Source of the DNA: Patescibacteria group bacterium | GTDB lineage: Bacteria; Patescibacteriota; Patescibacteriia; GWA2-46-9 | Direction of reading: 5' to 3' | Assembly (NCBI GenBank): GCA_041660005.1 | Contig: JBAZXG010000005.1 | Coordinates: 4,064 to 68,063, forward strand | Length of the DNA: 64,000 nucleotides | Shown: positions 7,412 to 62,686 of the stretch, in pieces | How the letters are laid out: each line of letters starts with the position of its first letter | Numbering within the stretch: position 1 is the stretch's first letter | Notes under the pieces: model-generated | Database searches by the model: none | What the model saw: the letters and a program-made list of their open reading frames with translations, nothing else | What the model was told of the DNA's origin: nothing | Translations under genes and position numbers: made by a program

Positions 7412-10174
7412 TCAGGACTGCGAAATATCACTTCCGTGGCATTTCTTGTATTTCACCGGGGTGCCATCTGCTTTAACCGCTCCGCACGGGCACGGTTCAT
7501 TTCTACCAATTTTTTCTGCATGAACTTGTACAGCGCTAGAGCTCACATTTCCACCTGCCGGCAAACCACCGTCAGCTGTTCGCTCTGACATGGTTTTGGC
7601 GGGTGCAGAGAAGGTTATGTTTTGCTTACGTTGAAGCGAAGGCGCCATGTTTGCTGCAGCCCGCACTTTATAAATACTGTACACAACTTGCTTACGAATG
7701 AGATCAAGGAGCTCAGCAAACAAACGGAATGCCTCTCGCTTATACTCAACCAGAGGGTCTCTCTGTCCGTATCCGCGTAGACCAATACCCTGCCGCAAAT
7801 GGTCCATGGCTTCTAGGTGCTCGATCCATAGGGAATCAATGGAGCGCAGTAGCAGTGAACGCTCAACGAGAAGAAAACCGTTCTTGTCGTCCTTGATGGC
7901 TTCGTTAATTTCTTTGGCAAGTTGCTCATAAGCTGTCTCTGCGTCTTTCAAAATCTGCGTTATGAGCGCGTCACGTTTAACAACAAGGGTATGCTCTTCC
8001 CCGCGACTACTGAGTTTTACAATTTCTTGCTCAGTGTCTGCAGAAACCGGATAAATCGTTCGCATCACTTCGCTAATTTCCTTAGTGTTCCAGTCACCGG
8101 TATTCTCACTACTGGTATGAAATGCTACCACCGTCTCGATCTCTTCCGTAATCATTTTTAATATTTCGGGACGCAGCAAATCCTCGCTCGTTTCCTCGCC
8201 GAGCTTGAAATTATCCAGAACACGATGGCGCATACGATAAATCGTTTCGCGATGCTTGTTGATAACGTCATCGTACTCAACTAAGTGCTTACGAATATCA
8301 AAGTTATGACCCTCAACCCTGCGCTGCGCCGATTCTAGAGCGCGCGAAACCATTTTGTTCTCAATCGGCATATCTTCAGGTACACCGAGGCGCTCCATCA
8401 TGGTTTTGATGCGCTCACTACTAAAAATGCGCATGAGGTCGTCCTCTAAACAAACGTAAAACTGAGATGACCCGGGGTCACCCTGTCTGCCGGAACGACC
8501 GCGCAATTGGTTGTCTATTCGCCGCGATTCATGACGTTCAGTTCCGATAACATGCAGCCCACCGGCTGCAACCACACGCTTATGCTCCTCCTCCCAGCGC
8601 GCCTGCTCTTCTGGACTTTCTGGCGCACCGTTAATGAGCTGCGGCGAAGAGCCGCCTAAGATAATGTCGACACCACGACCAGCCATGTTGGTTGCCAATG
8701 TCACCGCCCCAAATCTTCCCGCCTCGGCGATGATACTCGCTTCGCGCTCGTGGTTTTTTGCGTTAAGAACTTCATGTGGTACGCCAGCTTCCAATAGCAG
8801 CTGACTCAAATGTTCGTTTTTTTCAATTGATATCGTCCCAACGAGAACCGGCTGCCCTGTCTCGTGACGCGCTTTAATCTCGTCAATAACTGCCTTAAAT
8901 TTTCCGTGTTCGTTTTTATAGATACGATCAGACAGGTCACCCCGAACCATCGGGCGATGTGTTGGTATAACAACAACTTCCAACTTATAAATTTTATGAA
9001 ACTCCTCAGCTTCGGTCTCGGCTGTACCGGTCATGCCGGCAAGTTTTTCGTAAAGACGAAAATAATTCTGAAACGTTATCGTTGCTAACGTCTGGCTTTC
9101 TCGCTGAATTTTCACGTTTTCCTTGGCCTCAATTGCCTGGTGCAACCCCTCAGAATAACGCCGACCATACATAAGTCGCCCGGTAAACTCGTCAACAATG
9201 ATAACTTCATCGTCCTTCACAACATAGTCGCGATCTCTTTTATATAACCGTTCTGCTCTCAATGCTTGTTCGATGTGGTGAACAATCTCAAGACCACTAC
9301 CCGTATAGAGATTCTCAATATTAAGCAATTTCTCGAGCTTCGAAATCCCTAATGCGGTCAAGGTAGCCGCGCGCATCTTTTCGTCGACATTATCATCAAC
9401 CTCTGGCTCTAATTTCCTAATGAGTTGGGCGAACTGGTAATAGCGATCGTTGGATTCTTCAGCCGGAGCAGAAATAATGAGCGGCGTTCTCGCTTCGTCA
9501 ATAAGAATGCTATCCACCTCGTCGACAATGGCGTAGTGAAGCCCCCGCTGCACCCTGTCCTCAACGCGCGCAACCATGTTGTCGCGTAAATAATCAAAAC
9601 CAAATTCATTATTGGTGCCATAAGTTATATCGCAGGCATAGGCCTCTTTCCTGCTAACCGCTTCGAGTTCTTTTGTCTCTGGGTTATAGCGAAAGGCGGC
9701 ATCATGTTCAATTGAGCCCACCGACATACCCAGCATATCAAATACTGCACCCATCCACTGACACTGGAAACGGGCCAAATAATCGTTCACCGTAATCAAA
9801 TGGGCACCCCTACCCGTGAGCGCATTAGCATAAAGCGGCGCGGTTGCCGTTAACGTTTTACCTTCACCCGTACGCATTTCCGCAATGTTCCCACGATGCA
9901 ATATGACGCCACCCATGAGCTGCACATCAAAATGCCGCTGGTTAAGTGTGCGGCGCGCCGCTTCCCTTACCGAAGCAAAAGCTTCGGGTAATAAGTCGTC
10001 AAGTGATTCACCTTCGGCAAGACGACGCCTCAAGGTAACCGTTTGGGATCGAAGTTCTTCTGCGCTGAGCTTTGTACACGCTTCTTCGAATCCATTTATC
10101 ACATCAAGCGTAACCTGAACGTTTTTCAGCGCCCGGGCGTTGCTATCTCCAAATAATCTACTAATAATGCTCAC
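7412..10174 (-). CDS. secA: Preprotein translocase ATPase SecA
   Basis: 920 aa. Full SecA architecture with DEAD motor, preprotein cross-linking domain, helical scaffold and C-terminal zinc motif CPCGAVKADGTPVKYKKCHG. The start codon is GTG at 10172-10174. Confidence 0.95.
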   Translation of the reverse strand: MSIISRLFGDSNARALKNVQVTLDVINGFEEACTKLSAEELRSQTVTLRRRLAEGESLDDLLPEAFASVREAARRTLNQRHFDVQLMGGVILHRGNIAEMRTGEGKTLTATAPLYANALTGRGAHLITVNDYLARFQCQWMGAVFDMLGMSVGSIEHDAAFRYNPETKELEAVSRKEAYACDITYGTNNEFGFDYLRDNMVARVEDRVQRGLHYAIVDEVDSILIDEARTPLIISAPAEESNDRYYQFAQLIRKLEPEVDDNVDEKMRAATLTALGISKLEKLLNIENLYTGSGLEIVHHIEQALRAERLYKRDRDYVVKDDEVIIVDEFTGRLMYGRRYSEGLHQAIEAKENVKIQRESQTLATITFQNYFRLYEKLAGMTGTAETEAEEFHKIYKLEVVVIPTHRPMVRGDLSDRIYKNEHGKFKAVIDEIKARHETGQPVLVGTISIEKNEHLSQLLLEAGVPHEVLNAKNHEREASIIAEAGRFGAVTLATNMAGRGVDIILGGSSPQLINGAPESPEEQARWEEEHKRVVAAGGLHVIGTERHESRRIDNQLRGRSGRQGDPGSSQFYVCLEDDLMRIFSSERIKTMMERLGVPEDMPIENKMVSRALESAQRRVEGHNFDIRKHLVEYDDVINKHRETIYRMRHRVLDNFKLGEETSEDLLRPEILKMITEEIETVVAFHTSSENTGDWNTKEISEVMRTIYPVSADTEQEIVKLSSRGEEHTLVVKRDALITQILKDAETAYEQLAKEINEAIKDDKNGFLLVERSLLLRSIDSLWIEHLEAMDHLRQGIGLRGYGQRDPLVEYKREAFRLFAELLDLIRKQVVYSIYKVRAAANMAPSLQRKQNITFSAPAKTMSERTADGGLPAGGNVSSSAVQVHAEKIGRNEPCPCGAVKADGTPVKYKKCHGSDISQS

Positions 10175-10191
10175 AAACTGTATGCTTTAAT

Positions 10192-10360
10192 AATAAATGG
10201 TATTAACCCAAGGGCAAACCCCTGGATTTCTCAATCCGCCAGTTGGCGGATTGAGAAAGAAAGCGCGGCTGGTCCGCGCGGGGTATTAAACCCTTTGACG
10301 CCTGCGCCGCACAGAAATACAAACTGCTATTTGCACTTCGCTCACTATCCTCGGCAATAA
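10192..10360 (-). repeat. Copy 1 of ~170-nt structured intergenic repeat (minus orientation)
   Basis: Reverse complement of the elements at 33990-34159 and 46370-46537. It contains a perfect hairpin CTCAATCCGCC-AGTT-GGCGGATTGAG and a GCGCGG-ACCAG-CCGCGC hairpin. It fills the hpf-secA intergenic region and ends 18 nt before the secA GTG. Confidence 0.8.
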
Positions 10361-10418
10361 TTCCTCGATCCAAGCATGGTCGAAGAGCACAAACAATGAA
10401 CAGAAATCAATTTTATTG

Positions 10419-10742
10419 CTAGAACGACTTTCTGTCACGCTTCATTTTTTTTGTTTTGAACCGGCTCATTTCTTTTTTAAGTTCATCACGCAAGATATCA
10501 ATTGCGCCATAGAGGTCTGCAGCTGAAGCCTCTGCATAAAACGAATGCCCAGGCACAAACGCCTTCGCACTGCTGCGAAAAAGATTTTCGCCTTTTTGAT
10601 GATGTTGCGTCGTTCGCTCTAGCTCAACATCCATGCGTAAGGTCTCTGGATAAAATTTGACCAGGCCGCCGATTTTATTTTGCGTATACTCCGCGAGCGC
10701 GGTAGTCACGTCAACATTAATACCTTTTATTGCTACCTGCAT
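10419..10742 (-). CDS. hpf: Ribosome hibernation promoting factor / RaiA family
   Basis: 107 aa from M at 10742. The sequence MQVAIKGINVDVTTALAEYTQNKIGGLVKF matches the HPF/YfiA fold. The longer 148-aa track ORF would overlap murB, so the internal start is preferred. Confidence 0.75.
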   Translation of the reverse strand: MQVAIKGINVDVTTALAEYTQNKIGGLVKFYPETLRMDVELERTTQHHQKGENLFRSSAKAFVPGHSFYAEASAADLYGAIDILRDELKKEMSRFKTKKMKRDRKSF

Positions 10743-10785
10743 ATTAAAAATAACGTACCATAAAAAAACCCATTCTGCAAGCGCT

Positions 10786-11886
10786 TTATTGCCTAAAAAC
10801 GGACGGCAGTGTGTCAAAACCGACGCACTCTGCCTCTGGAAATAGACGTACGCCAAAATGTTCAAAAACTGCGGCTTGAATGTCCGTTGCTAAGTTAATG
10901 ACATCATTTGCCGACGCATGGGAAAGATTAACAATGGCCAATGCCTGCTTTGACGACAAACCGACTGAACCCCTCTGGTAGCCTTTAGGGAAGCCCGCCT
11001 GCTCAATCAACCAGGCAGCCGAAAGCTTCACTTTACCGTCAGCACTTGGCCAGCGCACCAGTTTAAGGTTTCTAACTTTTAACTGCTCATCTAATGCGTT
11101 ACTTTGCTCCAAGCTTATTACTGGGTTGGTAAAAAAAGAACCGACGCTGCGACTATAGGGTTCGTCCGTGCTCAAAACCATGGCTTTCTTTTTTCTGAGT
11201 GTTAGCACTGCAGCGCGAATTGCTTCGAGGGTGGGTTCTTCTCCACGCTCAGCGAGCAAACTACGTAGCTCTTCGTATTTTACACTACCCGTTTCCGATG
11301 AAAGCAAAGAAAAGGTTACGGTCATAACAACATAGCGCTTCCGCCATAAACGTTTAAAATTGCTGGTGCGATAGCCAAAGCCGCATTCTTTTTTACTCAA
11401 ATCTACGACCCTCTGTTGCTCGGTATCATAAACACGCACGGACACTATACTTTCACCAACTTCTTGCCCATAAGCGCCAATATTTTGTACCGGCGTAGCG
11501 CCAACGCTTCCGGGAATACCGCTCAAACACTCCACGCCGCTTAAGCCCTTTTGAACGCAAAGCGATACAAAAGTATCCCACGAGACAGCTGCCTCGGCTT
11601 TGACCTCGACCCTCCCACTAAGAGGCTCAGAAAAATGGATGCTCTTAGCCACGAAGCGAACAACGAGACCACGATAACCAGTATCCGAAAAAAGTATATT
11701 ACTGCCATCGCCCAAAACAAAAAAATCAAGACGCTGTTTTTTTGCACTCTCAATCGCCCACACCAATTCCTCCTCAGTCTTTGCTTCAAAATAGTAATCA
11801 GCCGGCCCGCCAATTTCTATCGATGAATGCTCGGAAAGTGGCTCATTCGTTATAACCCGTGAAGCGCTGACGCCGGTAAAAATCAT
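10786..11886 (-). CDS. murB: UDP-N-acetylenolpyruvoylglucosamine reductase MurB
   Basis: FAD-binding MurB N-domain GGPADYYFEAKTEEELVWAIESAKKQRLDFFVLGDGSNILF and a typical C-terminal domain. The start is set at M14 (11886) to avoid a 35-nt overlap with murC. Confidence 0.85.
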   Translation of the reverse strand: MIFTGVSASRVITNEPLSEHSSIEIGGPADYYFEAKTEEELVWAIESAKKQRLDFFVLGDGSNILFSDTGYRGLVVRFVAKSIHFSEPLSGRVEVKAEAAVSWDTFVSLCVQKGLSGVECLSGIPGSVGATPVQNIGAYGQEVGESIVSVRVYDTEQQRVVDLSKKECGFGYRTSNFKRLWRKRYVVMTVTFSLLSSETGSVKYEELRSLLAERGEEPTLEAIRAAVLTLRKKKAMVLSTDEPYSRSVGSFFTNPVISLEQSNALDEQLKVRNLKLVRWPSADGKVKLSAAWLIEQAGFPKGYQRGSVGLSSKQALAIVNLSHASANDVINLATDIQAAVFEHFGVRLFPEAECVGFDTLPSVFRQ

Positions 11887-11890
11887 AGCA

Positions 11891-13276
11891 TTAACGAATG
11901 AGCATATCGGCAACGCGCCAGACATCCCCGGCGCCCATGGTTATGAGTACCCCTTTGCCGGTTTCTTTTTTGGCAACGAGACTGGCCTCCTCAAGACTTC
12001 CTACCCCAACCGCATGCCCCGGATTCACTGCATTAATCGCCGCAACAAGCATGGCGTGGTCTACCCTCCCCTTGTCTTCACGAGCGGAAGCATAAATTGG
12101 CGGAACGATAACAAGATCGGCTTCACCCAAAGACTCCGCAAAATCAGGAAGCAACTGTTCTGTGCGACTGTAGGTGTGCGCTTGAAAAACAACCACAATG
12201 CGACGCTCCGAATACCCTTTTCGTACGGCGCGAACAACTGAACGAATTTCTGAAGGGTGATGCGCATAGTCGTCAATCACCACCATTGACCCAAATGCAC
12301 CGCGTCGCTCGAAACGCCTGGCGGTGCCTCGATAGTGCTCCAAGGATCTGCCAATAATTTTTGAAGATACCCCCGCCTTGTCCGCCATGACTAACGCGGC
12401 AAGAGCATCAAGAGCGTAATGCTTGCCCGGAAAATTAAGGGAGAATTCTCCATGCAAAACGTTATGCTTGTATACGCGAAAGTTTGTCACGCCTTCTTTA
12501 ACTTGAACGTTTTTAAGTTGCCAATCATTCTTTTTATCTTCACCAAAAGTAACGACTGATGCGGAACAACCTTTGACTAAACTTTTAGAGACAGGATCGT
12601 CACCATTAATAATGAGCGTACCGTCTGCGGGCAAACGCTTTACAAACTCGGCAAAAACAGCGAGATAGGCGGCTTCGTTTTTAAAGAAATCTGGATGGTC
12701 ATAATCAACGTTCGTAATAATGATATGACGAGGTGCGTAGAACTGAAATTTGTTTTGATACTCATCAGCCTCAAAAACAAACCAATCCCCACTACCGGAA
12801 CGTGCATTTTTTCCCCAGGCGGTTACCGGTGCACCGATTAACGCCGTTGGATCAATGCCTCCTTCTTCAAGCATGTGTGCAAGCAATGCCGTGGTCGTGG
12901 TTTTACCGTGAGACCCGGCAACCGCTACCGAATTCCGATAACTCAACGCCAGCACACCGAGTACTTCGGGATAACTCCACTCTGGCAGAGATAAATCTCT
13001 GGCCGCCTCGCGCTCAATATGGTTTGGTGCGTAGGCTGTTGAATAAACAATCGCGTCAATAATCGAAGTAATGTTGCTTTTCGAAAAACCCTCAGCAACC
13101 GAAATGTTTGACGAGCGCAGTACTTCATCGGTCTGAAAAGATTCCATTGTGTCAGAACCGCTGACTACATACCCTTGCGCTTGTAGCAGCGCTGCTAAGC
13201 CAGTCATTCCTACACCTTTAATGCCAATAAGATGTATGCGTGCCGGTGGGTTAGGAAATTGAGTTTCTGCAGTCAT
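11891..13276 (-). CDS. murC: UDP-N-acetylmuramate--L-alanine ligase MurC
   Basis: 461 aa. MurC N-terminus IHLIGIKGVGMTGLAALLQAQGYVVSGSD with Mur ligase central and C-terminal domains. Confidence 0.9.
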   Translation of the reverse strand: MTAETQFPNPPARIHLIGIKGVGMTGLAALLQAQGYVVSGSDTMESFQTDEVLRSSNISVAEGFSKSNITSIIDAIVYSTAYAPNHIEREAARDLSLPEWSYPEVLGVLALSYRNSVAVAGSHGKTTTTALLAHMLEEGGIDPTALIGAPVTAWGKNARSGSGDWFVFEADEYQNKFQFYAPRHIIITNVDYDHPDFFKNEAAYLAVFAEFVKRLPADGTLIINGDDPVSKSLVKGCSASVVTFGEDKKNDWQLKNVQVKEGVTNFRVYKHNVLHGEFSLNFPGKHYALDALAALVMADKAGVSSKIIGRSLEHYRGTARRFERRGAFGSMVVIDDYAHHPSEIRSVVRAVRKGYSERRIVVVFQAHTYSRTEQLLPDFAESLGEADLVIVPPIYASAREDKGRVDHAMLVAAINAVNPGHAVGVGSLEEASLVAKKETGKGVLITMGAGDVWRVADMLIR

Positions 13277-32607: not shown

Positions 32608-33984
32608 TTGGTTACTATGAACTTTACTGTGCGTCGAAGGATTTTTTGGTCTTTCATCATTTCTTTTTTTGTATTGTCGCCATTCATTATTCTGTATACA
32701 GCCGGCTATCGTTTAGCGAAAAACGAATTTGGCGTTGTTAAAACGGGAACAATCATCATCTCCACTGACCCGCGTCAAGCTTCGATTAGTATCAATGGAA
32801 AGGATACCAGCAAGACAACTCCGACTTTGCTTAGAGGTTTACAACCAGGTCGTTATGATATTGGTTTAACGAAGGTCGGCTACCTACCATGGAGTAAACG
32901 CCTCGACGTTACGGCTGACCAAGCCACTTTTGCAAGTAATATCCGTCTCTTTAAAAGCGCAGCGCCACTGCTGCGCCTTAAAGGAAACTCCATCGCAATG
33001 TGGTCAAAGGCAAATGGAACGCAGACGTTGATCATAGAGAACGATAACAGCGACCCGCACATTTATCACTTGTCTTTACTGCCTCGTATCCCTTCCTCAC
33101 CCCTTGTGCCTATTGCTACTGTCAACGGCTCGTCTGTTACACCAATCGACTGGTCACCAGACGAAACGAAAATTATTCTGCAAGTTGACCAGAGTTGGAT
33201 GATTGTCAATTTAGCAACATTACAAAGTTCGTCGCTCAAAACAACCGACGTTCCTGAAGGTACTTTTACATTACGCTTTTCCCAAAATAACTCCCTTTAC
33301 GCGGCGACCCATAAACAACTTTTTTTACTAGAAAAGGGAACAAATAGTTACGATCCAAAGCCAGAGAGAAATCCCATTAGTGCCCTAGGAAAAAATGCGC
33401 ACATTACTGACTTCTGGATAGACGCGGATCGGATATACGAGGCTATCTCGCTTGATGCTTCCAAGTCAGTGCTCCGAATTTCAAAAAATAGTTCGCTAAA
33501 CACAGAAATGACCACCCTACCAGATAGTGGTGACTACCACTATCTGGCGAGTGACAGCAATACGCTTATCCTTGAACACCAAGGAGATTTAAGTCTATAC
33601 AATATAACCTCTGAGACACCGTCGCTCCTTAAAACCATATCCAGCGCAAACACTGCGGTCATTGGAGACAATGGTGAAATTCTTTATAGTAATGGCTTTG
33701 AACTGCAACGGTATGCCCCTCTAACAAACACCAGTACCTTATTGCTGCGCTCAGCGCAGTCAATCAAAAAATTGGCTTGGCTGGCTGACAGCCGCCATGT
33801 GCTTTTTGCGTCTGACCAAGGGATATCAGTTGTCGACACACAACGTCCGGAGCCTTACACCACTTGGATGATAAGCCCACTATTGAGTCTCCAAAATTAT
33901 GCTACGACGACAGATGCGACTGCTCTTTATTTCGCAGGTACATTACCAGATGGAACGGCAGGATTGTTTGAGCAGCCATTATAG
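32608..33984 (+). CDS. PEGA domain protein, membrane-anchored with C-terminal beta-rich domain
   Basis: 458 aa. N-terminal TM, PEGA motif ISINGKDTSKTTPTLLRGLQPGRYDIGLTKVGYLPWS, and a repeat-rich C-terminal region. Confidence 0.6.
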   Translation: MVTMNFTVRRRIFWSFIISFFVLSPFIILYTAGYRLAKNEFGVVKTGTIIISTDPRQASISINGKDTSKTTPTLLRGLQPGRYDIGLTKVGYLPWSKRLDVTADQATFASNIRLFKSAAPLLRLKGNSIAMWSKANGTQTLIIENDNSDPHIYHLSLLPRIPSSPLVPIATVNGSSVTPIDWSPDETKIILQVDQSWMIVNLATLQSSSLKTTDVPEGTFTLRFSQNNSLYAATHKQLFLLEKGTNSYDPKPERNPISALGKNAHITDFWIDADRIYEAISLDASKSVLRISKNSSLNTEMTTLPDSGDYHYLASDSNTLILEHQGDLSLYNITSETPSLLKTISSANTAVIGDNGEILYSNGFELQRYAPLTNTSTLLLRSAQSIKKLAWLADSRHVLFASDQGISVVDTQRPEPYTTWMISPLLSLQNYATTTDATALYFAGTLPDGTAGLFEQPL

Positions 33985-33989
33985 TATTG

Positions 33990-34159
33990 CTTATTGCCGA
34001 GGATAGCGAGTGAAGTGCGCATAGCAATATGCATTTCCGAGCGACGCAGGTATCAAAGGGTTTAATACCCCGCGTGGCTATGCCACGCTAACTCTCTCAC
34101 TCCACCAACTAGCGGGTTGAGGAGTCCAGGGCTTTGCCCTGGGGTTAATACCATTTATT
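33990..34159 (+). repeat. Copy 2 of ~170-nt structured intergenic repeat
   Basis: Begins TTATTGCCGAGGATAGCGAGTGAAG and ends GGGGTTAATACCATTTATT. It has hairpins TGCATA-gcaa-TATGCA, GCGTGGC-TAT-GCCACGC and CCAGGGC-TTT-GCCCTGG. It starts 6 nt after the stop of the 32608..33984 gene. Confidence 0.8.
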
Positions 34160-34214
34160 GCCAAGGATTGCGAATTGAGAACTATTTAAAACTTTGCCCT
34201 GGGATTAATACCCT
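34155..34214 (+). repeat. Internally deleted mini-derivative of the repeat, tandem to copy 2
   Basis: TTATTGCCAAGGATTGCGAATTGAG matches the element 5' end. CTTTGCCCTGGGATTAATACCCTCTAC matches the element 3' end. It abuts the VanW-like stop at 34215. Confidence 0.6.
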
Positions 34215-36059
34215 CTACTCAACGACAACAGGCGCTGCTTCGTTTGTTACGCTCGTTATCGCGCTATTCATTTTTTTTGCTTCCAGAGTGTCCGATCCGA
34301 CGAGCCAACGCTCCGGCCAAGGACGGTAGTAGCTCTTGAATTCTTGATTTATAACGTGTCCGTCGCCATACGTCACCGTATATTTTGCAATTGCGGACCC
34401 TCCAGGATGCGCATGTTCAAGCAATTTTTTTTCATTAGCGCCAATGGTGTCCGATTCAACATAAATTGGGTCCCCGGATGGAATGCTACTCAGTGTATGT
34501 GGTCCGTCCACAACTGACTGGCGGCCATCTTTTGTACCATAGAGATCGAAGGTTATAAGTAGTCCTTCAACTCGACCAACAATCAAAAGAGAATTGGCGG
34601 TGTCGTTACGGAACCGAAGGTCGGGACGCGGTGAGTAAATCGTGGCGTCTAAACCAGGGCCGATACGCACACCGTTGCCATCCTTTTCATAGTAACTAAC
34701 TCTATAGGAATGATTTTGCCTGGCCGTTATGGGCAAACCCGCGTTTAAAAGCGAACGAAATAAAGTGGTTGACACCTGACACAACCCCCCACCAAACTCA
34801 GGCACCGTTCTGTCTCCTTTGATGACGAGTTCGGGTAAATACCCAGTTGTATTGTCTATACTCCCTAACGATTGTAAGGTTGAAAATTCTTCACCCGGCT
34901 TGACAAGTAAGCCCGACAAAAACCGAGTACCGTTTTTAATGTTTGCGATGCGATTTTTTGGACTACCGGAGAAACTCGTGGTTGCAGTTCCAATCAACTC
35001 TCGGATGCCAAGGTCAGCAGCAGAGCCATCTATGACTGGCTCTCGCACTGAGACAGGCAAAGACAGCTCACTCACTTCCTCCTGACCTTGCAATCGTACC
35101 TGTAATGCCTGGGTGAGTAGTAGAATGGTATCCTCCTCTTGCAATGTTCGTCCTGGCTGGGGTGCAGAAAACGAAACCACCTGATTTTCGTTGACTACAA
35201 CTTGCAAATTCTTTGCTGTGGTGTTCATTTTATCCGCGAGGTCAGCAACAAACTTACTTAACGCTACGGTATCGAAATGAACCGTCAGCTTATTACCTTC
35301 AGATGCAGATGCAACAAAACTGCCGAGTTCTTCACGCGTTACTGTATAGCGATTACCCTGGTAAACAAGAACAAGCGGCTTACCAATAACGCGCTTAACA
35401 GCATTAACCGCATCCGCCACTGTTCCGGGGTCAATACTCGGCTGTGTTGAAATTTTTTCTACAACGAGCGGCTGAAACTCTAGTTCAGCAGCTGAAGCCA
35501 GCAGATCATTACGCAATTTCTGCTGATCTATAATGAGGCCCGGTTTCGTATCCTTCAGTACGTTAACGTTCGTACCGTTAATTGACAAACGAATATCACG
35601 ACCAGGTTCGTCGTAAAGGGTAGCAATATCAGCAATCTCGCTCGTTAGCGCCACTTCATCAATACTAAGCGGAGCGGCTAATCGGGTACCTACAAAAAAG
35701 TTTTTCGAAGATTCGTTGATTCGGTGTAGTATGTCCCCTCTACGGCCAACACTCATCGCCTGCTTAACCGCCGCCGACCCGTCAATATTCAAACCAAACT
35801 GCTGCAAATGAATAACTTGGGTTTCGCTGTCAAATTTTAATGGTATGCCAACATCGTGAAGAGCTCTCAACCTCGCGCTAACTTTTGCTTCAGCCACAGT
35901 TGCCGAAAGCCCACCAACGTCGACGTTGCCTACAGAGACATTGGGTAAAACATGACCTGCATAGGCAACTCTATACAGAATCACGACTGCAGTAAGCGCA
36001 ATAAAGAGCGCCGCAGTGAGCAAAGCTAATTTTCTACCGATTGTTGTTAGTATCGCCAT
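34215..36059 (-). CDS. VanW family protein
   Basis: 614 aa with an N-terminal TM. The C-terminal VanW-domain signature EFGGGLCQVSTTLFRSLLNAGLPI. Confidence 0.7.
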   Translation of the reverse strand: MAILTTIGRKLALLTAALFIALTAVVILYRVAYAGHVLPNVSVGNVDVGGLSATVAEAKVSARLRALHDVGIPLKFDSETQVIHLQQFGLNIDGSAAVKQAMSVGRRGDILHRINESSKNFFVGTRLAAPLSIDEVALTSEIADIATLYDEPGRDIRLSINGTNVNVLKDTKPGLIIDQQKLRNDLLASAAELEFQPLVVEKISTQPSIDPGTVADAVNAVKRVIGKPLVLVYQGNRYTVTREELGSFVASASEGNKLTVHFDTVALSKFVADLADKMNTTAKNLQVVVNENQVVSFSAPQPGRTLQEEDTILLLTQALQVRLQGQEEVSELSLPVSVREPVIDGSAADLGIRELIGTATTSFSGSPKNRIANIKNGTRFLSGLLVKPGEEFSTLQSLGSIDNTTGYLPELVIKGDRTVPEFGGGLCQVSTTLFRSLLNAGLPITARQNHSYRVSYYEKDGNGVRIGPGLDATIYSPRPDLRFRNDTANSLLIVGRVEGLLITFDLYGTKDGRQSVVDGPHTLSSIPSGDPIYVESDTIGANEKKLLEHAHPGGSAIAKYTVTYGDGHVINQEFKSYYRPWPERWLVGSDTLEAKKMNSAITSVTNEAAPVVVE

Positions 36060-40223: not shown

Positions 40224-43200
40224 TTAATGATTCTGCCCGTTACGCCTACCTCTCGTGTAGTAATAGTACCAGAGGTAGAGCAGGATGAGTAGAATAGGAA
40301 GCCACCAGTACCAACACAGCGAGAAAATGGTGTAACACCCAGGGCCAGACGGTACTGCTATAGGTGGTGTGTCCTGATTAAGGTTGTCACCAGCTCCAGT
40401 CGGACCCGTAGTGCTCTCACCTGAGCCAGATTGCCCGCCTTGTGGCTCTCCGCCAGTGTTACCACCCGCGCCACTGGTATCAGTAACACCAAGTACTTCA
40501 CCCGAGGGCTGCCCGCCTGTTGTCGGAGGCGGGGTTGTGCCACCACCAGTACCAGGACCTGTTTCAACACCGAGAACTTCTCCACCAGGAGGTGTTCCAC
40601 CACCAGTATTTTCGCCGCCTCCAGTTGTTGTGTTCGTGGTGCTTGCAAGTGTAACGTTGGTTGATTTAATGGTCGTACCGCCGCCTGCATTTCTGAATTT
40701 TGCATACACGGTCTTGAGGCCGTCGCCAGAAACCAGAACCCATGTACCTGATGTGGATGCCGGCTGGAAACCAGGTGAGTCGCTCAGATCTGAAAGGTTA
40801 CCTACAGCAATTTCCGTTACGTCCGGACCGTACGTGAAGAGCAAATGCACGTTTGGTGAAGTTACGCTCGTCCCTTCAGCAACGGCTACTGCGACAGTAT
40901 CGTAGTTAGGCCCGCCTGGCGTAATACCGCTGCCGCCACCTCCACCACCGCCGCCGCCCCCGCCGCCACCTCCACCACCACCGCCGCCACTAGTAGTCGC
41001 GAAGGAGAATTCAGCGCTTACGGTTTCCGGAACTGTTGCGGAAATAACGCGGTAGTAAATAGTCGTCGCCGCTGGTAGTCCGCTCAGATTCACGCCATGC
41101 GAAGTTAGTTTTGTCGAATCAGTCGGTGATGTTGAGCCGTAGTTATAGTTTGGTGCGCTCCCGAGTGTTCGCGATACTGCATCGTAAACAACGCGGCTCG
41201 TACTCCCTCGATCAGTATTCCAACTAATCGTGGCGCTACTCGTGGTGATGGCGCTCGCAGCGACATTACTAATAACCAGATCAGGGTAGTTACCAAAAGT
41301 CATGGTATTATCAGCGTCGTCAAGCGTAACTTCGTCAGCCGCACTGAGATTGGTAACCGTAACATCGTACGAGACCGTCTTATTCAGGTCTGCGCCTTCA
41401 CAACCATCTATTGAACAGACAAGCGTAAAGTCTTTACCTGAGAGCGCAGGATACGTACTTGCCCAGCCATGCTTATTCCCCTCGAGCACACGATAGGTGC
41501 CAGTAGTCGGTATGGTAAGGTCAACAAAACCGTCGGCGTTTGTGCTGCCAAGAGAGGCAATAGTGACCGTTTCAGTGGTACCGCCCTCAGTTTCAATGGT
41601 TACAACTTTACCAAGAGCGATTTGCCAACCTTCTACACCGTTTTCTCCCTCTTCTCGTGTACCATTGCCATTATCGTCTGACCACTTCTGAACACGAACG
41701 TGAGGCAGCTTGAAGTTCCCAAACTGTAAATCGAGGCTTAAAGACTCCCCATTTTGTCCGGTGGAAACCGTACTGCCACCTTCTGCAACCGTAACGTCAT
41801 ACGTTCGACTTGTTTCAAGAGTAACTCCGTCGCAGCCGGAAACGGTACACGTTACTGTGTAATCACCCACTGCGTTAACCGCTGGGCTTGTTGTCTGCCA
41901 GCCATCAGCTTTGGCTTCAAGAACACGGTACGTACCGGTTCCTGAAACCGTGAAGGAGAAATTACCGCTCTCATCAGTCTGCACAACTTGTAGAACCGTC
42001 AATGGTGTTGGATCGCCCGAATGAGCTGGCTCGCCAACTGATGCCAAGGCGATTGTCCAGCCGGCAATCGTCGATTCACCCTCTCCGTAAACGCCATCGT
42101 TATTGGCATCATTCCATTTAAGTCCACTGATTGTGGAATCCTCGATGTTGCCAAATTGAATCGTATGCTCGCTGTTATCGAGAGTAACCGTACCGCCGTC
42201 GGGCTGTGTTGTGTCGACCGTTACATCAAAAAAGGCGTTGGTGTCGAAGTTGTGTACATCACAGCCGAGAACTGAGTCGCCACAGGTAACTGTTTGGTTG
42301 ACGGTTTGTGAGCCGGGCATGATTCTACTCCAAGCAGAACGCAGCTCTTCAAACACGCGGTAGGTACCACTTGATAGAATTGGGATGGAGAAAGAACCGT
42401 CGGTACCCGTTAAACTGAGCGCGGTTATTTCAACCGGCACGGGCTCGTCCCCCTCTGAGGAACCAATTTTTCCGAGGGCAATCTTCCAACTCTCAATGGC
42501 GCTCTCCAAAGGACTGCCATCCCAAACACCGTTGCCATTCTTGTCGTTCCACTTGTGGCCACCAACATTCCAGTTTGAGTCGCAAGCGTCACCGATGTGG
42601 TCAGTGTCAGTATCGGCCTGGTCACTGTTCGCTACAAGCGGACAGTTGTCGCCAGGAGGAATCGCTAAATCTGTAAATACGCCGTTTCCGTCATCAGTCT
42701 TGTCAGTGACTTCGTCATTGTCGGCATCGGTGTCACAAACGTCACCAATATAGTCGCTGTCAGTATCTGTCCGCAGCGCATTTTCCGTAAGCGGACAGTT
42801 ATCGCCACCGTCGACCGAATCAATCGCAGTGAAAGTCCCGTCTTCGTTATCAGTTTTATCGGCAACGCCATCGCCGTCGCTGTCAGCATCGCAGACATCA
42901 CCCTTGCCGTCGGTATCCTTATCGCGCTGGTCAGGGTTGGCAATCGTCGGACAGTTATCTTCACCGTCAACAAAGCCATCACCGTCCGTGTCAACATCTA
43001 CAAATTTATTATTGAAGGTGCAGTTAACATTGTCTCCGGCTGCTACATCAAGATGTAGAGGATCGTACGTTGTTGCACTGTCGTTAATGGTGCAGCTAGA
43101 ACTCGTCAGCTCCCATCCGCTCGCATTCGCTTCGGTAACTGCATAGGAACCGGGCAGCAAGTTAGCGTAAGTGTGGGACTGACCGTCAGAGAGTGATTGT

Positions 43201-46046
43201 TCGTCCGCGTCATTCAGTGCGAAAGTAAATAACCGTGGCGAGTCAGCAGGGTCTGTGACCTTGGTTACGGTTATTGATGCAAATTTAACATTGCCAAAGT
43301 TACGATTGGGATGAGTGAGGTCACCGGTTGACCCTGAAACGAGGTAAGTTCCGTTGTCTTGCCCGCCAAGACCGGTCTCGGCCGTTGGTGCTGTTTGGTG
43401 CCAGCCATCCTGTTGAATCTCTGAAATAATGTACTCACCTGGACCAAGGTTGTTAAACTGGTAATTACCAGAATCGTCTGTTTGTACTTCACAATACTCG
43501 CCGCTGACAGTCGCTTCTACTGTCTTTCCAGATACACAAGTTGGTGCGCTCTCTGAACCAGCGAGGTCAAGACGGATCGTCCAACCGGGCAGATTAGGAT
43601 CAGCTCCGAGCGTGCGTACTCCATCAGCACTCAGGTCGTGATACTTCTTCCCGGAAATTGAGAAGAGTTCAAAGTTACCAAAGTCTTTTCCCGTAATGTC
43701 CTTTTCTTCACCAATGGTAACCAAATAAGTGCCAGAAGCAGGATAAGTCTGAGTCCATCCGCTCTTTACGGATTCTGAAAGAGTATAGCCGCCAGGGGTA
43801 ACGTCTAAGAACGAGTAGTTACCATTTTCATCCGTAGTCGCTGACTGGGTTGATCCGCTACCAGCCAAGGTGATTATCCACCCTTGAAGACCCGGCTCAC
43901 CAGCGTCCTTAGCGCCGTTACCGTTGGTGTCTCTAAATTTCATGCCCGAAACTGAACCGAGCTTCGTACTGTTGTAGGTACAGGTAATGTTGGAGCCCGC
44001 AGACAATGAAAGCGCGGACGGGTCCTGACCATCGGTGCAGGTCGGGGTTGAGTCAATAGTAAACCCACTTGAAGCACTACCGACGAGACTATAAGTAGTA
44101 TCTGGCAGTAAGCTCGGGAAGGTGTAGGAATCGCTACCCACTAATGAATGCGATACTGTTGTGCCGCCGCTTGGTGTTAAATCAAACGTAAACGTACCAG
44201 CGTCACTCGGGTCAGCAACGTTAATGACCGTGATCGTTCCGCGCTCTGCGTTCGAGAATGTGCATGAAAGGTTTTGACCAGCACTAATCTCAATGTCGCT
44301 TCCGGGAACATAGGTTACGTCACCACAAATCGCTGCCGTTAAATCCCAATCAGTGACATCGCTTTCGTTCAATGCGTATGTACCCGGCAAGAGACTGCCA
44401 AATGTTCCGGTTTCCCCGTTTTTTAGTGATGCAATGCCAGCCGATTTTCCACTGAGGGTAAAGCCAAATGCCTGTGTGGACGCTGACGGATCTGCATTTT
44501 TGGTTACACTGATAGAACCCAATTCGACATTCCCAAAATCAAGATTGTTTATAATGTCGTCATCAGCAACCGGCTGAGTATAACCAAATCCAGTCAAACA
44601 AGTTGCTCCAGCCGTTGGATAGGTCTGTTGCCAACCTGCAGGCACCGTTTCACACACGGTGTAGGTGCCAGCAGCCAATCCAGAAACGCTATACTCGCCC
44701 AAAGCATTTGTCGTAGCCGTTGCTGGTGTTGGACCGGCCAAGGTTACTTCCTGGCCAGAGAGTGGCGTACCGTCGTTGTTGATGCCGTCAGCATTAAGAT
44801 CGCTGAAGACTGCTCCATTAATAACTCCATTATTTTTCGCCGGCGGCTCACCTGCTCCCCAAACCGTAACATCGTCTAAGCGAACAATTTGATCGCTCAC
44901 CGGAGAATCAATTTCAAAACGTAGAGCAAAATTTGGGTTATTCTCTGCCCCGGCAAGCGGCCCAAATGATGTCCACACCAAATAGGGTTCAATGTTTTTT
45001 CGCGCTTCCAGTTGCAGCCAGGTAGTTCCAGCGTCAACAGAATAGTAAGCGCGCAAACCTTCGCCTCCGTGTTTCATTTCGCTAACGCGCCGAGCATACG
45101 CCACATGAATACCTTGGGTTACACCCGCAGTACTAATAACTTTACTAATGGCATCGCTAACGCCATGGGAACGATTAAGCTCGACACCATACCCCTTATC
45201 TGGAGTGTTATCGTCGGTGTAGTACTTTCGCTCATTTATCGTTTTCCCTTTTCTAATAACCGGATCATTTTCAACGGTCCAGTTGTTCGGCAGAGTATCA
45301 ACGGTATTAGCTTCAAACCCATCGTAAAAAATAGGGGGATTTAAGCCATACACTTTAACATTATCTATACCAACCTTGTCGCCATTAACACCCATCAAGT
45401 AAAACTGCAGCGACAACATGGCGTGACGGTCAGAATTTTCAATCGTATAGGTTGTCACCGTATGTGTTGGTATGGATTCAGTAACCGTTTCCAGTGCAAT
45501 GTCTGGAACAACGCTCCAGGCGTTGTATAGTGGGTCTTCAAAAGAATACTGAGAAACAAACTGACTTGTCGTCAGAGGTACGGCAAATTGAACCTTGCGA
45601 GAATATTCAACAACCAACCTTGCGTATCCTTGCGTAGCAATTTCACGACCGCCGCCATTATCAAGTGATGTTTTATTTGCACCTTCAAGATAGAGCCCTT
45701 TAGAACCCTCTACCCCAACAGGAAAACCATCGATGGTATTGTCACGCTTGGGTTTCGTTGCGCCGTCCAGTATTTCCCAATTATTCGTACCGATATTCGT
45801 TGTACCTTGATCAAAGTTGTCGTTAAAAATGAGAACCGGCGCTGGTACGACCGACGCCTGAGCGATACTCGGTACCGTTAAAGAAAAATGAACAGGACCG
45901 AAACTACTCACGACCATCGTAAAGATGGTAATAGTAGTTGTTACTTTATGAATAAATTTTTTCAATGCTGTTTTGCGACCCACCGACAAACGGCTGATCG
46001 CGCCTCTCTTAATTTGACTGCCGAACTGCAGTTTTATGTGAGTCAT
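40224..46046 (-). CDS. Giant multi-domain surface adhesin-like protein (SdrD-B-like / TSP3 / FN3 domains, poly-Gly linker, C-terminal membrane anchor)
   Basis: 1940 aa with a signal/TM N-terminus. Multiple SdrD B-like/Cna-B-type repeats (NGNG..D.GE.GL.GW..TL...NG.Y.F..L.PG.Y...E....GW.QT). Thrombospondin type-3 Ca-binding repeats (DTDGDGFVDGEDNCP..DQRDKDTDGKGDVCDADSDGDG). An FN3 module. A 21-residue Gly run. The C-terminus is CWYWWLPILLILLYLWYYYY followed by RGRRNGQNH. Confidence 0.85.
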   Translation of the reverse strand: MTHIKLQFGSQIKRGAISRLSVGRKTALKKFIHKVTTTITIFTMVVSSFGPVHFSLTVPSIAQASVVPAPVLIFNDNFDQGTTNIGTNNWEILDGATKPKRDNTIDGFPVGVEGSKGLYLEGANKTSLDNGGGREIATQGYARLVVEYSRKVQFAVPLTTSQFVSQYSFEDPLYNAWSVVPDIALETVTESIPTHTVTTYTIENSDRHAMLSLQFYLMGVNGDKVGIDNVKVYGLNPPIFYDGFEANTVDTLPNNWTVENDPVIRKGKTINERKYYTDDNTPDKGYGVELNRSHGVSDAISKVISTAGVTQGIHVAYARRVSEMKHGGEGLRAYYSVDAGTTWLQLEARKNIEPYLVWTSFGPLAGAENNPNFALRFEIDSPVSDQIVRLDDVTVWGAGEPPAKNNGVINGAVFSDLNADGINNDGTPLSGQEVTLAGPTPATATTNALGEYSVSGLAAGTYTVCETVPAGWQQTYPTAGATCLTGFGYTQPVADDDIINNLDFGNVELGSISVTKNADPSASTQAFGFTLSGKSAGIASLKNGETGTFGSLLPGTYALNESDVTDWDLTAAICGDVTYVPGSDIEISAGQNLSCTFSNAERGTITVINVADPSDAGTFTFDLTPSGGTTVSHSLVGSDSYTFPSLLPDTTYSLVGSASSGFTIDSTPTCTDGQDPSALSLSAGSNITCTYNSTKLGSVSGMKFRDTNGNGAKDAGEPGLQGWIITLAGSGSTQSATTDENGNYSFLDVTPGGYTLSESVKSGWTQTYPASGTYLVTIGEEKDITGKDFGNFELFSISGKKYHDLSADGVRTLGADPNLPGWTIRLDLAGSESAPTCVSGKTVEATVSGEYCEVQTDDSGNYQFNNLGPGEYIISEIQQDGWHQTAPTAETGLGGQDNGTYLVSGSTGDLTHPNRNFGNVKFASITVTKVTDPADSPRLFTFALNDADEQSLSDGQSHTYANLLPGSYAVTEANASGWELTSSSCTINDSATTYDPLHLDVAAGDNVNCTFNNKFVDVDTDGDGFVDGEDNCPTIANPDQRDKDTDGKGDVCDADSDGDGVADKTDNEDGTFTAIDSVDGGDNCPLTENALRTDTDSDYIGDVCDTDADNDEVTDKTDDGNGVFTDLAIPPGDNCPLVANSDQADTDTDHIGDACDSNWNVGGHKWNDKNGNGVWDGSPLESAIESWKIALGKIGSSEGDEPVPVEITALSLTGTDGSFSIPILSSGTYRVFEELRSAWSRIMPGSQTVNQTVTCGDSVLGCDVHNFDTNAFFDVTVDTTQPDGGTVTLDNSEHTIQFGNIEDSTISGLKWNDANNDGVYGEGESTIAGWTIALASVGEPAHSGDPTPLTVLQVVQTDESGNFSFTVSGTGTYRVLEAKADGWQTTSPAVNAVGDYTVTCTVSGCDGVTLETSRTYDVTVAEGGSTVSTGQNGESLSLDLQFGNFKLPHVRVQKWSDDNGNGTREEGENGVEGWQIALGKVVTIETEGGTTETVTIASLGSTNADGFVDLTIPTTGTYRVLEGNKHGWASTYPALSGKDFTLVCSIDGCEGADLNKTVSYDVTVTNLSAADEVTLDDADNTMTFGNYPDLVISNVAASAITTSSATISWNTDRGSTSRVVYDAVSRTLGSAPNYNYGSTSPTDSTKLTSHGVNLSGLPAATTIYYRVISATVPETVSAEFSFATTSGGGGGGGGGGGGGGGGGGGSGITPGGPNYDTVAVAVAEGTSVTSPNVHLLFTYGPDVTEIAVGNLSDLSDSPGFQPASTSGTWVLVSGDGLKTVYAKFRNAGGGTTIKSTNVTLASTTNTTTGGGENTGGGTPPGGEVLGVETGPGTGGGTTPPPTTGGQPSGEVLGVTDTSGAGGNTGGEPQGGQSGSGESTTGPTGAGDNLNQDTPPIAVPSGPGCYTIFSLCWYWWLPILLILLYLWYYYYTRGRRNGQNH

Positions 46047-46369
46047 AAAATAATAATATTTAAACCAAAAATAACGCTAACAAACAACGACTATTGATAT
46101 AATGACGTTTGTTTTTTCTTTTTATTTCGGCGAACAGAACCACTTTTAAAACACTGGCGCACTTATCAATTCCGTGGTTCTTTCCCCCTTTGAACCAAAC
46201 AAACGCTGTTATAAGGCACGTTGGCCTTAAAAAGTTAAGATGATTTGTGTATCTTCGTTTTCTGATATTGCCTGCTTTTCCGACCAAGGACTGCAACGAA
46301 GCACCTAATAGCTTAGTTAATAAAACCCCTGCTGTCAATAGAAAAATTAAATGGCCCTGTCGTATAATC

Positions 46370-46537
46370 TTATTGTCGAGGATAGCGAGTGAAGTGCGCA
46401 TAGCAAATATGCATTTCCGAGCGACGCAGGTATCAAAGGGTTTAATACCCCGCGTGGCTATGCCACGCTAACTCTCTCACTCCACCTAGCGGGTTGAGGA
46501 GTCCAGGGCTTTGCCCTGGGGTTTTATACCATTTATC
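46370..46537 (+). repeat. Copy 3 of ~170-nt structured intergenic repeat
   Basis: Near-identical to copy 2 (TTATTGTCGAGGATAGCGAGTGAAGTGCGCATAGCAAATATGCATTTCCGAGCGACGCAGG...). It lies in the 536-nt region between the giant gene start and the CAP-domain gene stop. A TATAAT hexamer lies immediately upstream (46363-46368). Confidence 0.8.
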
Positions 46538-46582
46538 CACAGTTTTTAACTAAAAAACCCAAGGAAAACGTATAAGTTAATC

Positions 46583-61597: not shown

Positions 61598-61680
61598 GAA
61601 CTTTTATTGCCGAGGATAACGAGCGAAGCACAAACTACAGTTTGTATTTCCGAGCAACGCAGGCAACAAAGGGTTTTATG
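61598..61680 (+). repeat. Partial (5' half) copy 4 of the structured intergenic repeat
   Basis: TTATTGCCGAGGATAACGAGCGAAGCACAAACTACAGTTTGTATTTCCGAGCAACGCAGGCAACAAAGGGTTT. The hairpin is ACAAACT-aca-GTTTGT here versus TGCATA-gcaa-TATGCA in copy 2, a compensatory replacement. Confidence 0.7.
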
Positions 61681-61693
61681 TCATGTATTACGA

Positions 61694-61735
61694 TTTTTAC
61701 ACCATTTTGTGCGTACGCACAAAATGGTGTAAAAA
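61694..61735. promoter_or_regulatory. 42-nt perfect palindrome (core TTTTGTGCGTACGCACAAAA)
   Basis: TTTTTACACCATTTTGTGCGTACGCACAAAATGGTGTAAAAA is perfectly self-complementary. It shares a 20-nt core with the palindrome at 62647-62686. Confidence 0.7.
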
Positions 61736-61982
61736 TTGAAAAACTCAAAAAGCAATAATACCAATTAACTCATTTCAGCTTTGTTTCGTTATTTTAAGGA
61801 CTCAACTAATCAATTACCCCACCCCAGGGGGGACGGGATATGTAATGGTGATCCCACTTCGCTGAGTCAAACTCATTTCCTTCACTTAAGCTACGGACGG
61901 TCAAGGAGCTACGAGGGATATTTTTGTCTTCTGCAACAGTAACCTCGCGGCAAGCCGACGAGGTATTGGGGACAAAAATAGA

Positions 61983-62646: not shown

Positions 62647-62686
62647 TTTTACATATTTTTGTGCGTACGCACAAAAATATGTAAAA
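62647..62686. promoter_or_regulatory. 40-nt perfect palindrome (core TTTTGTGCGTACGCACAAAA) 8 nt upstream of the PaaX-like start codon
   Basis: TTTTACATATTTTTGTGCGTACGCACAAAAATATGTAAAA is perfectly self-complementary. Its core is identical to the 61694-61735 palindrome but the outer arms differ (ACATAT versus ACACCAT). Confidence 0.7.

Follow-up and report, generated by a model that had tools for sequence, protein, structure and literature searches.

The family described here is new, but it belongs to a kind already known, the small structured non-autonomous repeats, for which bcr1 of the Bacillus cereus group offers the best-matching precedent. [quoted passage not shown] MITEs such as Correia/NEMIS, RUP and ERIC carry terminal inverted repeats (TIRs) and target-site duplications that stem from a DDE transposase, REPs are palindromes of 20–40 nt with a GTAG or CGTC tag, and PATEs have similar hairpins at both ends. 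BOX and SPRITE of Streptococcus pneumoniae are co-transcribed with their neighbours, SPRITE being terminator-like. IS608 and ISDra2 show the pattern of a fixed short left-flank sequence and a fixed right end, and the ends of IS608-type elements are similar hairpins bound by one TnpA. The genomes of Patescibacteria (CPR) are ~1 Mb in size and heavily streamlined. In the literature searched, no description of interspersed repeats or of the present RNA/DNA motif was found for this group.

The window, meaning the whole 64-kb stretch of DNA that was analysed, comes from a member of the Patescibacteria whose SecA is 79% identical to the SecA of a Candidatus Uhrbacteria MAG. An nhmmer profile built from the copies themselves, together with the BLASTN identities given below, bears out the repeat of ~170 nt at the four loci named in the earlier note, as well as the mini-derivative adjoining copy 2:

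Copy 1, long form, 10192–10360, minus strand (nhmmer 10363–10191, E 1.9e-58)
Parts of copy 1: 5′ block 10336–10355; H1 10314–10339; 5′ strand of P3/P3b 10280–10296; H3 10263–10279; H4 10228–10257; H5 10208–10225; 3′ strand with TTTATT 10192–10209
Copy 2, long form, 33991–34159, plus strand (nhmmer 33988–34160, E 2.8e-62)
Parts of copy 2: 5′ block 33996–34015; H1 34012–34037; 5′ strand of P3/P3b 34055–34071; H3 34072–34088; H4 34094–34124; H5 34126–34142; 3′ strand with TTTATT 34141–34159
Mini-derivative, internally deleted, 34155–34219, plus strand (nhmmer 34169–34219, E 0.009)
Copy 3, long form, 46370–46537, plus strand (nhmmer 46367–46538, E 7.7e-58)
Copy 4, 5′ core, 61604–61679, plus strand (nhmmer 61601–61690, E 2.8e-25; covariance model 65.3 bits)
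Parts of copy 4: 5′ block 61609–61628; H1 61625–61650; 5′ strand of P3 61668–61679
Insertion within the second hairpin of copy 4, 61680–61753, no strand
Candidate degenerate 3′ terminus of copy 4, 61754–61768, plus strand (10/13 bases match)

The similarity among these copies far exceeds chance, with 95.9% identity between copies 2 and 3, 83.5% between copies 1 and 2, 79.5% between copies 1 and 3, and 83% over 77 nt between copies 4 and 1. Copy 3 terminates in TTTATC. The mini-derivative retains the first ~9 nt of the element (GCCAAGGAT) and its last ~45 nt, namely the 3′ half of H4, a decayed H5 and GGGATTAATACC. For copy 4, previously taken for a 5′ half, the 5′ core stands as described, but a bare half it is probably not: the insertion, which contains a perfect palindrome of 42 nt (61694–61735), has a like counterpart at the identical position of the related element at locus L055, and behind it AATAATACCAATTAA weakly resembles the family sequence AATACCATTTATT, possibly as a degenerate 3′ terminus, so that copy 4 is probably a whole copy spanning 61604 to ~61768 and interrupted by the palindrome-bearing insertion. 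The tally is thus three full copies, one interrupted and one deleted copy in 64 kb; a covariance-model scan of the window gave no copy beyond those listed, and a repeat search revealed only one other real repeat family in it, a 41-nt palindrome.

All copies lie between genes, and Pfam scans of 50 window ORFs showed these to be ordinary housekeeping, cell-envelope and pilus genes, with no transposase, integrase or reverse transcriptase among them. Copy 1 is located between hpf (10419–10742) and secA (7412–10174) on the same strand as both, and a promoter-like TTGCCC-16-TATTAT (10217–10190) spans its 3′ end, directed at secA 20 nt away. No exact-protein match was found to hpf (with two start choices) or to the PaaX-like gene beside copy 4. 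Copy 2 begins 6 nt past the stop codon of a PEGA-domain gene (32608–33984, plus strand) and sits between convergent genes, the facing one being a VanW-family gene on the minus strand, whose stop codon (34215–34217) is overlapped by the end of the mini-derivative. Copy 3 is antisense to both of its minus-strand neighbours, a CAP-domain gene (46583–47776) and the gene of a giant surface protein of 1940 aa (40224–46046), and an ORF called across the repeat at 46060–46401 is possibly spurious. Copy 4 is likewise antisense to both neighbours, a subtilase gene and the PaaX-like gene.

Relatives in other Patescibacteria, for which a search had been proposed, were retrieved with the conserved 5′ block as search pattern (18 fixed bases). 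A scan of 185,579 species-representative genomes gave 42 loci, six of which carry the element, all in Patescibacteria MAGs: L010 (Falkowbacteria), L031 (Kerfeldbacteria), L022 and L025 (one MAG), L028 and L036; the others are chance matches, about as many as a pattern with 18 fixed bases would produce. From metagenomes, 25 loci were recovered with 23 true members, among them L065, which is identical to copy 3, and after removal of duplicates 25 distinct elements were obtained. As Falkowbacteria are ranked by NCBI as a separate candidate phylum, the repeat family extends over several candidate phyla. The GTDB representative genomes with matches hold only one or two exact-pattern copies each, which is low for an active repeat, although MAGs under-assemble repeats. 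Orthologous copies (L044/45/46/52 and L047/56) stay in place. An all-versus-all BLASTP of the neighbouring proteins found no family common to the loci, by which a gene linked to the element was rejected, and no autonomous parent element was present among the 25 relatives. Carriage by phages was rejected as well: IMG/VR gave eight pattern matches with no family member. BLASTN of long and short forms against phages and 72,556 plasmids, those of the B. cereus group included, yielded chance matches only.

The relatives reveal the anatomy of the element, which occurs in a minimal form of ~85 nt (82–86 nt; 92–96 nt when aligned with flanks) at six loci, in the long form of ~170 nt and in intermediate forms. 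The minimal form consists of TTATT, GCCGAGGATAGYGAGNGAAG, a variable hairpin, CTTCCGAGCGNCGCAGGCRAC, AAAGGGT, a loop of 4–6 nt and ACCCTTTATT. RNAalifold on the six minimal forms predicts a P1 helix (UUGCC/GGCRA), a P2 of 2 bp (GY/GC), a long H1 closed by GAAG/CUUC and, one nucleotide from P1, the P3 hairpin (AAAGGGU/ACCCUUU), so that the unit can be written as TTA[TTGCC-GAGGAUAGYGAGN-GAAG...hairpin tip...CUUC-CGAGCGNCGCA-GGCAA]C[AAAGGGU-loop-ACCCUUU]AUU. The first hairpin is irregular and combines the strongly conserved 5′ block with a hypervariable, compensating tip; the 12-bp, AT-rich, hypervariable H1 and the 7-bp P3 are dissimilar. Because the 5′ block, along with the final two T of the left-hand TTATT, served as search pattern, its near-invariance is in part a product of the search, and positions outside this pattern are the independent evidence.

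In the long form, the minimal fold is kept and three hairpins, the GC-rich H3, the long H4 and H5 (CCAGGGC/GCCCUGG), are nested in the P3 loop and enclosed by an extra helix, ACCCC/GGGGU. Members with an ACCCUUU 3′ end (L057, L036a, L022, L051 and L049) take on precisely this fold. The recurring GGKTTAATACC motif, previously regarded as a possible binding site, thus represents the two strands of an interrupted P3/P3b helix and is explained by base pairing. All hairpins quoted in the earlier note are present: GCGTGGC-TAT-GCCACGC with its counterpart GCGCGG-ACCAG-CCGCGC, the variants of H1 and, in copy 1, a perfect stem formed by CTCAATCCGCC and GGCGGATTGAG. H3 and H4 differ wholly in sequence between lineages and are always formed; support for H3–H5 comes from per-sequence folds, the MAFFT alignment of the 3′ module being too ragged for pair counts. 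H4 has three mismatches in copies 2 and 3 and is perfect in copy 1, L055, L036a and L057. The intermediate forms (L044–46, L050, L052 and L063) appear to have arisen from the long form by internal deletion. A second copy in L036, the tandem partner of the first, joins a different 5′ core to a homologous 3′ module, by which the family is mosaic and probably wider than the search pattern could detect. The H1 sequence is common within a lineage or sample (L048/L049/L060; L051/L061/L053; copies 2/3; copies 1/4 with L055) and differs between lineages, the pattern of lineage-specific amplification.

Compensatory substitutions, proposed at first from the window copies, are supported statistically in a curated alignment of 24 members, from which the P3 interior of long and intermediate forms was excised in order to align the true 3′ strand. 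Standard pairs occupy 90.8% of the alignment cells versus 39–53% when partners are slid by 1–3 columns, both partners have changed in 11 of the 26 pairs (43 cells), and none of 500 shuffles equalled the observed pairing or covariation score. Most of the signal resides in H1 (8 of 12 pairs covarying), with one pair in P1, as in TTGTC...GACAA of L022/L025 versus TTGCC...GGCAA, and two in P3. This covariation supports the predicted fold, with counts that are indicative, the cells being phylogenetically non-independent. G·U pairs exceed A·C pairs by 41 to 12 over all helices and by 14 to 8 when counted by column, which assigns the fold to one strand, the sense strand, as RNA or single-stranded DNA, and not to a duplex protein site; the folding energy of the whole element does not differ significantly between sense and antisense (15/25, p=0.2). 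Two further candidates were rejected. A k-turn was dismissed for the inner loop, which appears to combine a tandem G·A 2x2 loop with a single bulge and to lack the geometry of a 3-nt bulge, and a conserved peptide is incompatible with a GAAG–CTTC interval of 14–21 nt, in non-multiples of three, and with stops in most frames.

In the earlier note, compensatory change had been taken as an argument against a mobile element, a conclusion that is not supported, since the copies behave like a mobile element in their flanks, the tandem pair, the deletion derivative, the empty sites, the patchy distribution, the random orientation and the want of a consistent promoter. At every copy there is a constant direct repeat which had been overlooked, TTATT on the left and TTTATT as the 3′ end. 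In 22 independent loci the left flank reads T, T, A, T, T in 21, 20, 20, 22 and 22 cases, where positions −2 and −1 are set by the search pattern and positions −5 to −3 and the 3′ motif are independent; a further T precedes it in 14 of the 22. The last six bases are TTTATT in 21–22 of 22 loci, and the sequence further out is unrelated. The absence of terminal inverted repeats noted before holds: the 5′ end TTATTGCCGAGGATAG is unrelated to the reverse complement of the 3′ end AATAAATGGTATTAAC, which excludes an origin as a classical DDE transposon. Copy 2 and the mini-derivative stand in tandem with one TTATT (34155–34159) common to both.

Empty sites are found at two of the loci. Synteny across murB-hpf-secA extends to L068 (SecA 79%) and L069 (SecA 73%), both without the element, where the hpf-secA spacer measures 67 and 44 nt respectively versus 244 nt with copy 1, and in L069 the right-hand flank ATTAAAG is still recognisable. 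The neighbourhood from a glycosyltransferase gene through HIT, CAP and giant-protein genes to rml is syntenic in L082/L083 (CAP 71%), where the CAP-to-giant-gene spacer has 371 nt versus 536 nt with copy 3; the difference is about one element (168 nt), and the remainder is alignable. At 71–79% protein identity to these relatives, the shorter spacers might also be due to deletion there, and the VanW homologues, at ≤51% identity, are too distant for such a comparison at copy 2. In ~98 kb of close relatives (L068–L071 and L082) no copy was detected, yet the element is present in the remote Falkowbacteria and Kerfeldbacteria. No filled/empty polymorphism within a population was seen; a near-identical strain is filled at copies 2 and 3. 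Relative to its neighbours the element is oriented at random, being antisense at 7 loci, sense at 5, divergent at 3 and convergent at 1. The upstream gene is often only 5–15 nt away, and space for a promoter is often lacking. That the fold is strand-specific although orientation shows no bias is more easily explained by a function in propagating the element itself than by one in the mRNAs of the host.

The descriptive traits of the group A bcr repeats that were compared all recur in this element: it is a multi-copy intergenic repeat within ~100–400 bp with partial copies, it has direct-repeat flanks of the TTTAT type, its positions are not conserved among relatives (L068, L069 and L082/L083 being empty), and its two-stem-loop fold carries compensatory changes (11 double-change pairs, 0/500 shuffles). 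Both are interspersed, and the 5-bp T-rich direct repeat is TTTAT in bcr1 and (T)TTATT in Patescibacteria. On the other hand, bcr1 is confined to one species group, whereas the present family spans several candidate phyla in hosts that are remote from Bacillus at the phylum level, and the nested three-hairpin expansion module is a feature of the Patescibacteria family. The element is treated here as an analogue of bcr1, working like it, and not as a member: the BLASTN searches of plasmids and phages returned nothing in Bacillus, bcr1 itself having been compared by its description and not by a consensus sequence. With BOX and SPRITE the family shares a modular structured intergenic make-up, variable module number and the lack of an assigned transposase, but the sequences are unrelated, constant TTATT flanks are missing there, and BOX modules are arranged as A-B(n)-C and not nested in a hairpin loop. 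REP/BIME-RAYT and PATE elements are likewise interspersed, intergenic, hairpin-based and free of TIRs, with a single-strand logic and a fixed short flank motif; the length and tags of REPs set these apart, as does the similarity of the two PATE end hairpins, which here differ. Size, intergenic position, non-autonomous nature, the donation of promoters or terminators and deletion derivatives which keep the ends recall the MITEs, from which the element is separated by its lack of TIRs, and neither the window nor the loci of the 25 relatives yielded an autonomous, transposase-bearing IS akin to it.

Because bcr1 is the best-matching precedent, we adopt a bcr1-like reading, in which the repeats are probably a trans-mobilised, TTATT-targeted, non-autonomous mobile family of Patescibacteria. 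The data establish the repeat and its conserved fold, as well as its constant flanks, its empty sites and its patchy occurrence. An enzyme encoded elsewhere would move the element after recognition of its conserved 5′ block, its folded strand or both; insertion would take place at (T)TTATT sites in AT-rich intergenic DNA and leave the copy between a left TTATT and a right TTTATT. As candidate routes, the TTATT core might undergo site-specific recombination, which has been proposed for bcr1, or the strand might be moved by an HUH-type 'peel and paste' of single-stranded DNA. In the minimal unit, the bases of the two adjacent hairpins would bring both T-rich ends together; since the final TT of the left-hand TTATT pairs within P1 and the TTT of the right-hand TTTATT within P3, the junctions come to lie side by side at the hairpin feet, a geometry which would be suited to cutting and joining and which would also favour precise loss via slippage between the direct repeats. 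Once inserted, copies would be passengers on neighbouring transcripts and would decay by mismatches such as those in H4 of copies 2 and 3, by internal deletions and by nested insertions. They may supply incidental signals, such as the promoter-like site towards secA and the stop codon of the VanW gene.

The strongly conserved internal-loop nucleotides would also suit a functional RNA, and the earlier note had indeed listed a multi-copy sRNA besides a REP/BIME-like element. Each copy would then be a transcription unit of its own, acting in trans and ending at the second hairpin with a U-rich tail. In keeping with this, the fold is conserved and covarying with a G·U excess on the sense strand, the invariant loop nucleotides look like a core to which a protein or RNA might bind, in some members (L064) the 3′ hairpin with the UUUAUU(UU) behind it is terminator-like, and a promoter-like site that contains TATAAT (46339–46368) ends 1 nt before the left TTATT of copy 3. 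Such an sRNA family is nevertheless improbable. Promoter position is not conserved, −12 to −7 differs between loci, upstream sequences share only TTATT, a promoter-like site precedes copy 3 alone, and the upstream gene often lies only the 5–15 nt away that are mentioned above; a terminator-like end was present in one of three short forms tested (it fails in L054 and L053), fails in copy 2 and is found at no outer end in the window. The L048 member lies between tRNA genes downstream of a 16S gene and the L028/L066 member between co-directional genes, immediately upstream of an atpD-like ORF, placements at which efficient termination would be harmful. Loci are moreover non-syntenic, close relatives do without the family over ~98 kb, and truncated, deleted and interrupted copies persist. 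The REP/BIME-like candidate comes close to the reading favoured here, and a host-domesticated variant of it would be a cis module (REP/BIME-, BOX- or SPRITE-like) which stabilises, terminates, insulates or promotes transcripts, its mobility being secondary or extinct. This is unlikely, despite the strictly intergenic placement, the position of copy 2 shortly after a stop codon between convergent genes, the promoter-like site of copy 1, the retention of orthologous copies across related organisms (L044/45/46/52) and the report that about half of the B. cereus bcr copies are within UTRs or operon spacers (PMC3446304). A function exerted in host mRNAs would be at odds with the random orientation of so strand-specific a fold, the element is missing from close relatives at corresponding loci, decay is visible in H4 of copies 2 and 3, in the mini-derivative and in copy 4, and terminator and promoter matches are inconsistent.

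Unlikely, too, is a derivation from IS200/IS605 (PATE) or REP/RAYT, by which single-stranded DNA would be moved by a Y1 HUH transposase and inserted 3′ of TTATT without duplication. The lack of TIRs, the fixed left-flank sequence and right end, the hairpins lying subterminally at either end and a fold of one strand that tolerates G·T would all agree with it, and the flank pattern is compatible both with a fixed left target without duplication and with a 5-bp duplication of a preferred target. However, the end hairpins H1 and P3 are unlike and H1 is hypervariable, no TnpA, RAYT or TnpB is encoded in the window or at any family locus, and orientations are mixed (1 minus, 4 plus, small numbers) within what the uniformly negative GC skew of the window identifies as one replichore, where a strict strand bias would have been expected. 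Invariant nucleotides in internal loops flanked by freely covarying helices are the usual signature of RNA active sites, and the sense strand folds, its 3′ end falling on a U-rich tract. Even so, an RNA that is catalytic or mobilises itself, whether as a self-cleaving ribozyme of a new type or by way of an RNA intermediate with priming at UUUAUU/AATAAA, is highly improbable, as no Rfam ribozyme matched even at permissive thresholds and neither an internal promoter nor a linked reverse transcriptase is present. The window as a whole had no Rfam hit at gathering score, copy 2 gave noise only at E up to 10, and the L054, L061, L048 and L057 elements gave no hit, in agreement with the initial view that the family is unclassified and does not resemble tRNA, tmRNA, RNase P, SRP or 6S RNA, whose motifs are also missing from the core by eye. 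With a low probability, finally, the core of two hairpins, in which the internal loops are highly conserved and the T-rich ends adjoin, may be the substrate of a hitherto unrecognised TIR-independent system. At (T)TTAT(T) sites this system would work on the single strand in its folded state, and it would also explain the mobility of bcr1–3 in Bacillus. This would involve a site-specific nicking and joining enzyme or an RNA-templated route; the nested modules, H3–H5 and the palindrome of copy 4/L055, lie just after a TTTAT-like loop sequence and might, under such a system, be further insertions by the same machinery.

Under the bcr1-like reading, a proliferating structured repeat without a transposase, at about one copy per 15 kb in the contig, is unexpected in streamlined CPR genomes, and a core strongly conserved across candidate phyla adds to its interest. 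Beside bcr1, the family would be a second, phylogenetically remote case of TTTAT-flanked, TIR-less structured repeats, and a comparison of the genes which co-occur with the Patescibacteria family and with bcr1 could point to the enzyme. In practice, such repeats break short-read CPR assemblies, risk false ORF calls and alter intergenic signals beside essential genes such as secA. In the near-identical strain, contig L081 breaks off inside copy 2 and contig L085 inside copy 3, as expected of a repeat in short-read contigs.

The family of structured repeats (about 85 nt in its minimal form of two hairpins, about 170 nt in its long form) has variant members in other loci, and one of them suggests a superfamily of mosaic make-up whose 5' cores can be exchanged, since the second of two tandem elements in L036 (4551-4686, minus strand) joins a 5' core that looks unrelated (ACGGAGCGGAATAGGAGC..GCATTCCATCCGAG) to a 3' module homologous to the family (nhmmer E 5.7e-5). 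In the member of L049 (8035-8160, minus strand), the 3' core is separated from the second hairpin, P3, by an internal insertion of 44 nt, and this insertion terminates in a duplicated CGACGCAGGC. In L048, a minimal-form element (10701-10796) stands in sense orientation among the tRNA genes downstream of the 16S rRNA gene, with the gene order 16S, tRNA, element and three tRNAs at 9852-13070, and because of this placement within the 16S/tRNA cluster it is probably co-transcribed with these highly expressed stable RNAs.

In the window, the ends of several copies coincide with other signals or signal-like sites. The 3' end of copy 1 and its flank together make up a sigma-70-like site, TTGCCC-16-TATTAT (10217-10190, minus strand), which faces secA, whose GTG start lies approximately 20 nt downstream; judged by its match to the consensus only, this may be a hybrid promoter that arose from the insertion of copy 1. 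The stop codon of the VanW-family gene (minus strand) at 34215-34217 is located inside the decayed terminus (34215-34219) of the internally deleted mini-derivative in tandem with copy 2, and the repeat therefore provides the end of this reading frame; the same arrangement is present in L081, a contig of a near-identical strain. Where copy 3 meets its right flank (46533-46541), the sequence is TTATCCACA, which matches the DnaA-box consensus perfectly. In L082, a syntenic relative without copy 3, TTATCCACAG likewise occurs in the empty spacer, in the opposite orientation; this may be a coincidence.

The spacer upstream of the gene for a 1940-aa surface protein (46046-46330, minus strand), aligned against L082 11300-11530 and the second such relative, L083, contains blocks that are also conserved in a relative at 71% identity, such as GCCAACGTGC and TTGTWTGGTTCAAAGGGG..AAGAACC. 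It may be a 5' leader or a regulatory RNA; an Rfam search with E up to 1 gave no match for it. One predicted reading frame overlaps it:

46060-46401, 113-aa ORF, start codon inside the first hairpin (H1) of copy 3

This ORF is probably spurious, as it gave no Pfam match and no corresponding gene is called in L082.

A PaaX-like regulator gene is bracketed by two perfect palindromes of about 41 nt:

61694-61735, palindrome, downstream of the PaaX-like gene stop, within the second hairpin of copy 4
61983-62639, minus strand, PaaX-like regulator gene
62647-62687, palindrome, just upstream of the PaaX-like gene start

The two versions, of the pattern TTTTACA..TTTTGTGCGTACGCACAAAA..TGTAAAA, are 85% alike, and may serve the regulator as a pair of operators. 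Alternatively, the palindrome could be a second small insertion element with a TTTAT-like loop as its target; a third version occupies the same insertion position in a related element of the metagenome locus L055 (~1355-1410), where the flanks differ from those of copy 4.

Throughout the window (1-64000), which holds no tRNA or other Rfam RNA genes, GC skew is negative in all 4-kb bins and the minus strand carries most genes, which suggests that the entire stretch belongs to a single replichore in which the minus strand is the leading one. The repeats break up short-read assemblies of the source organism: contigs of the near-identical strain (Logan SRR18595301) end inside copy 2 (L081), inside copy 3 (L085) and, in the case of L080, close to the second palindrome, approximately 160 nt past the TPR gene.
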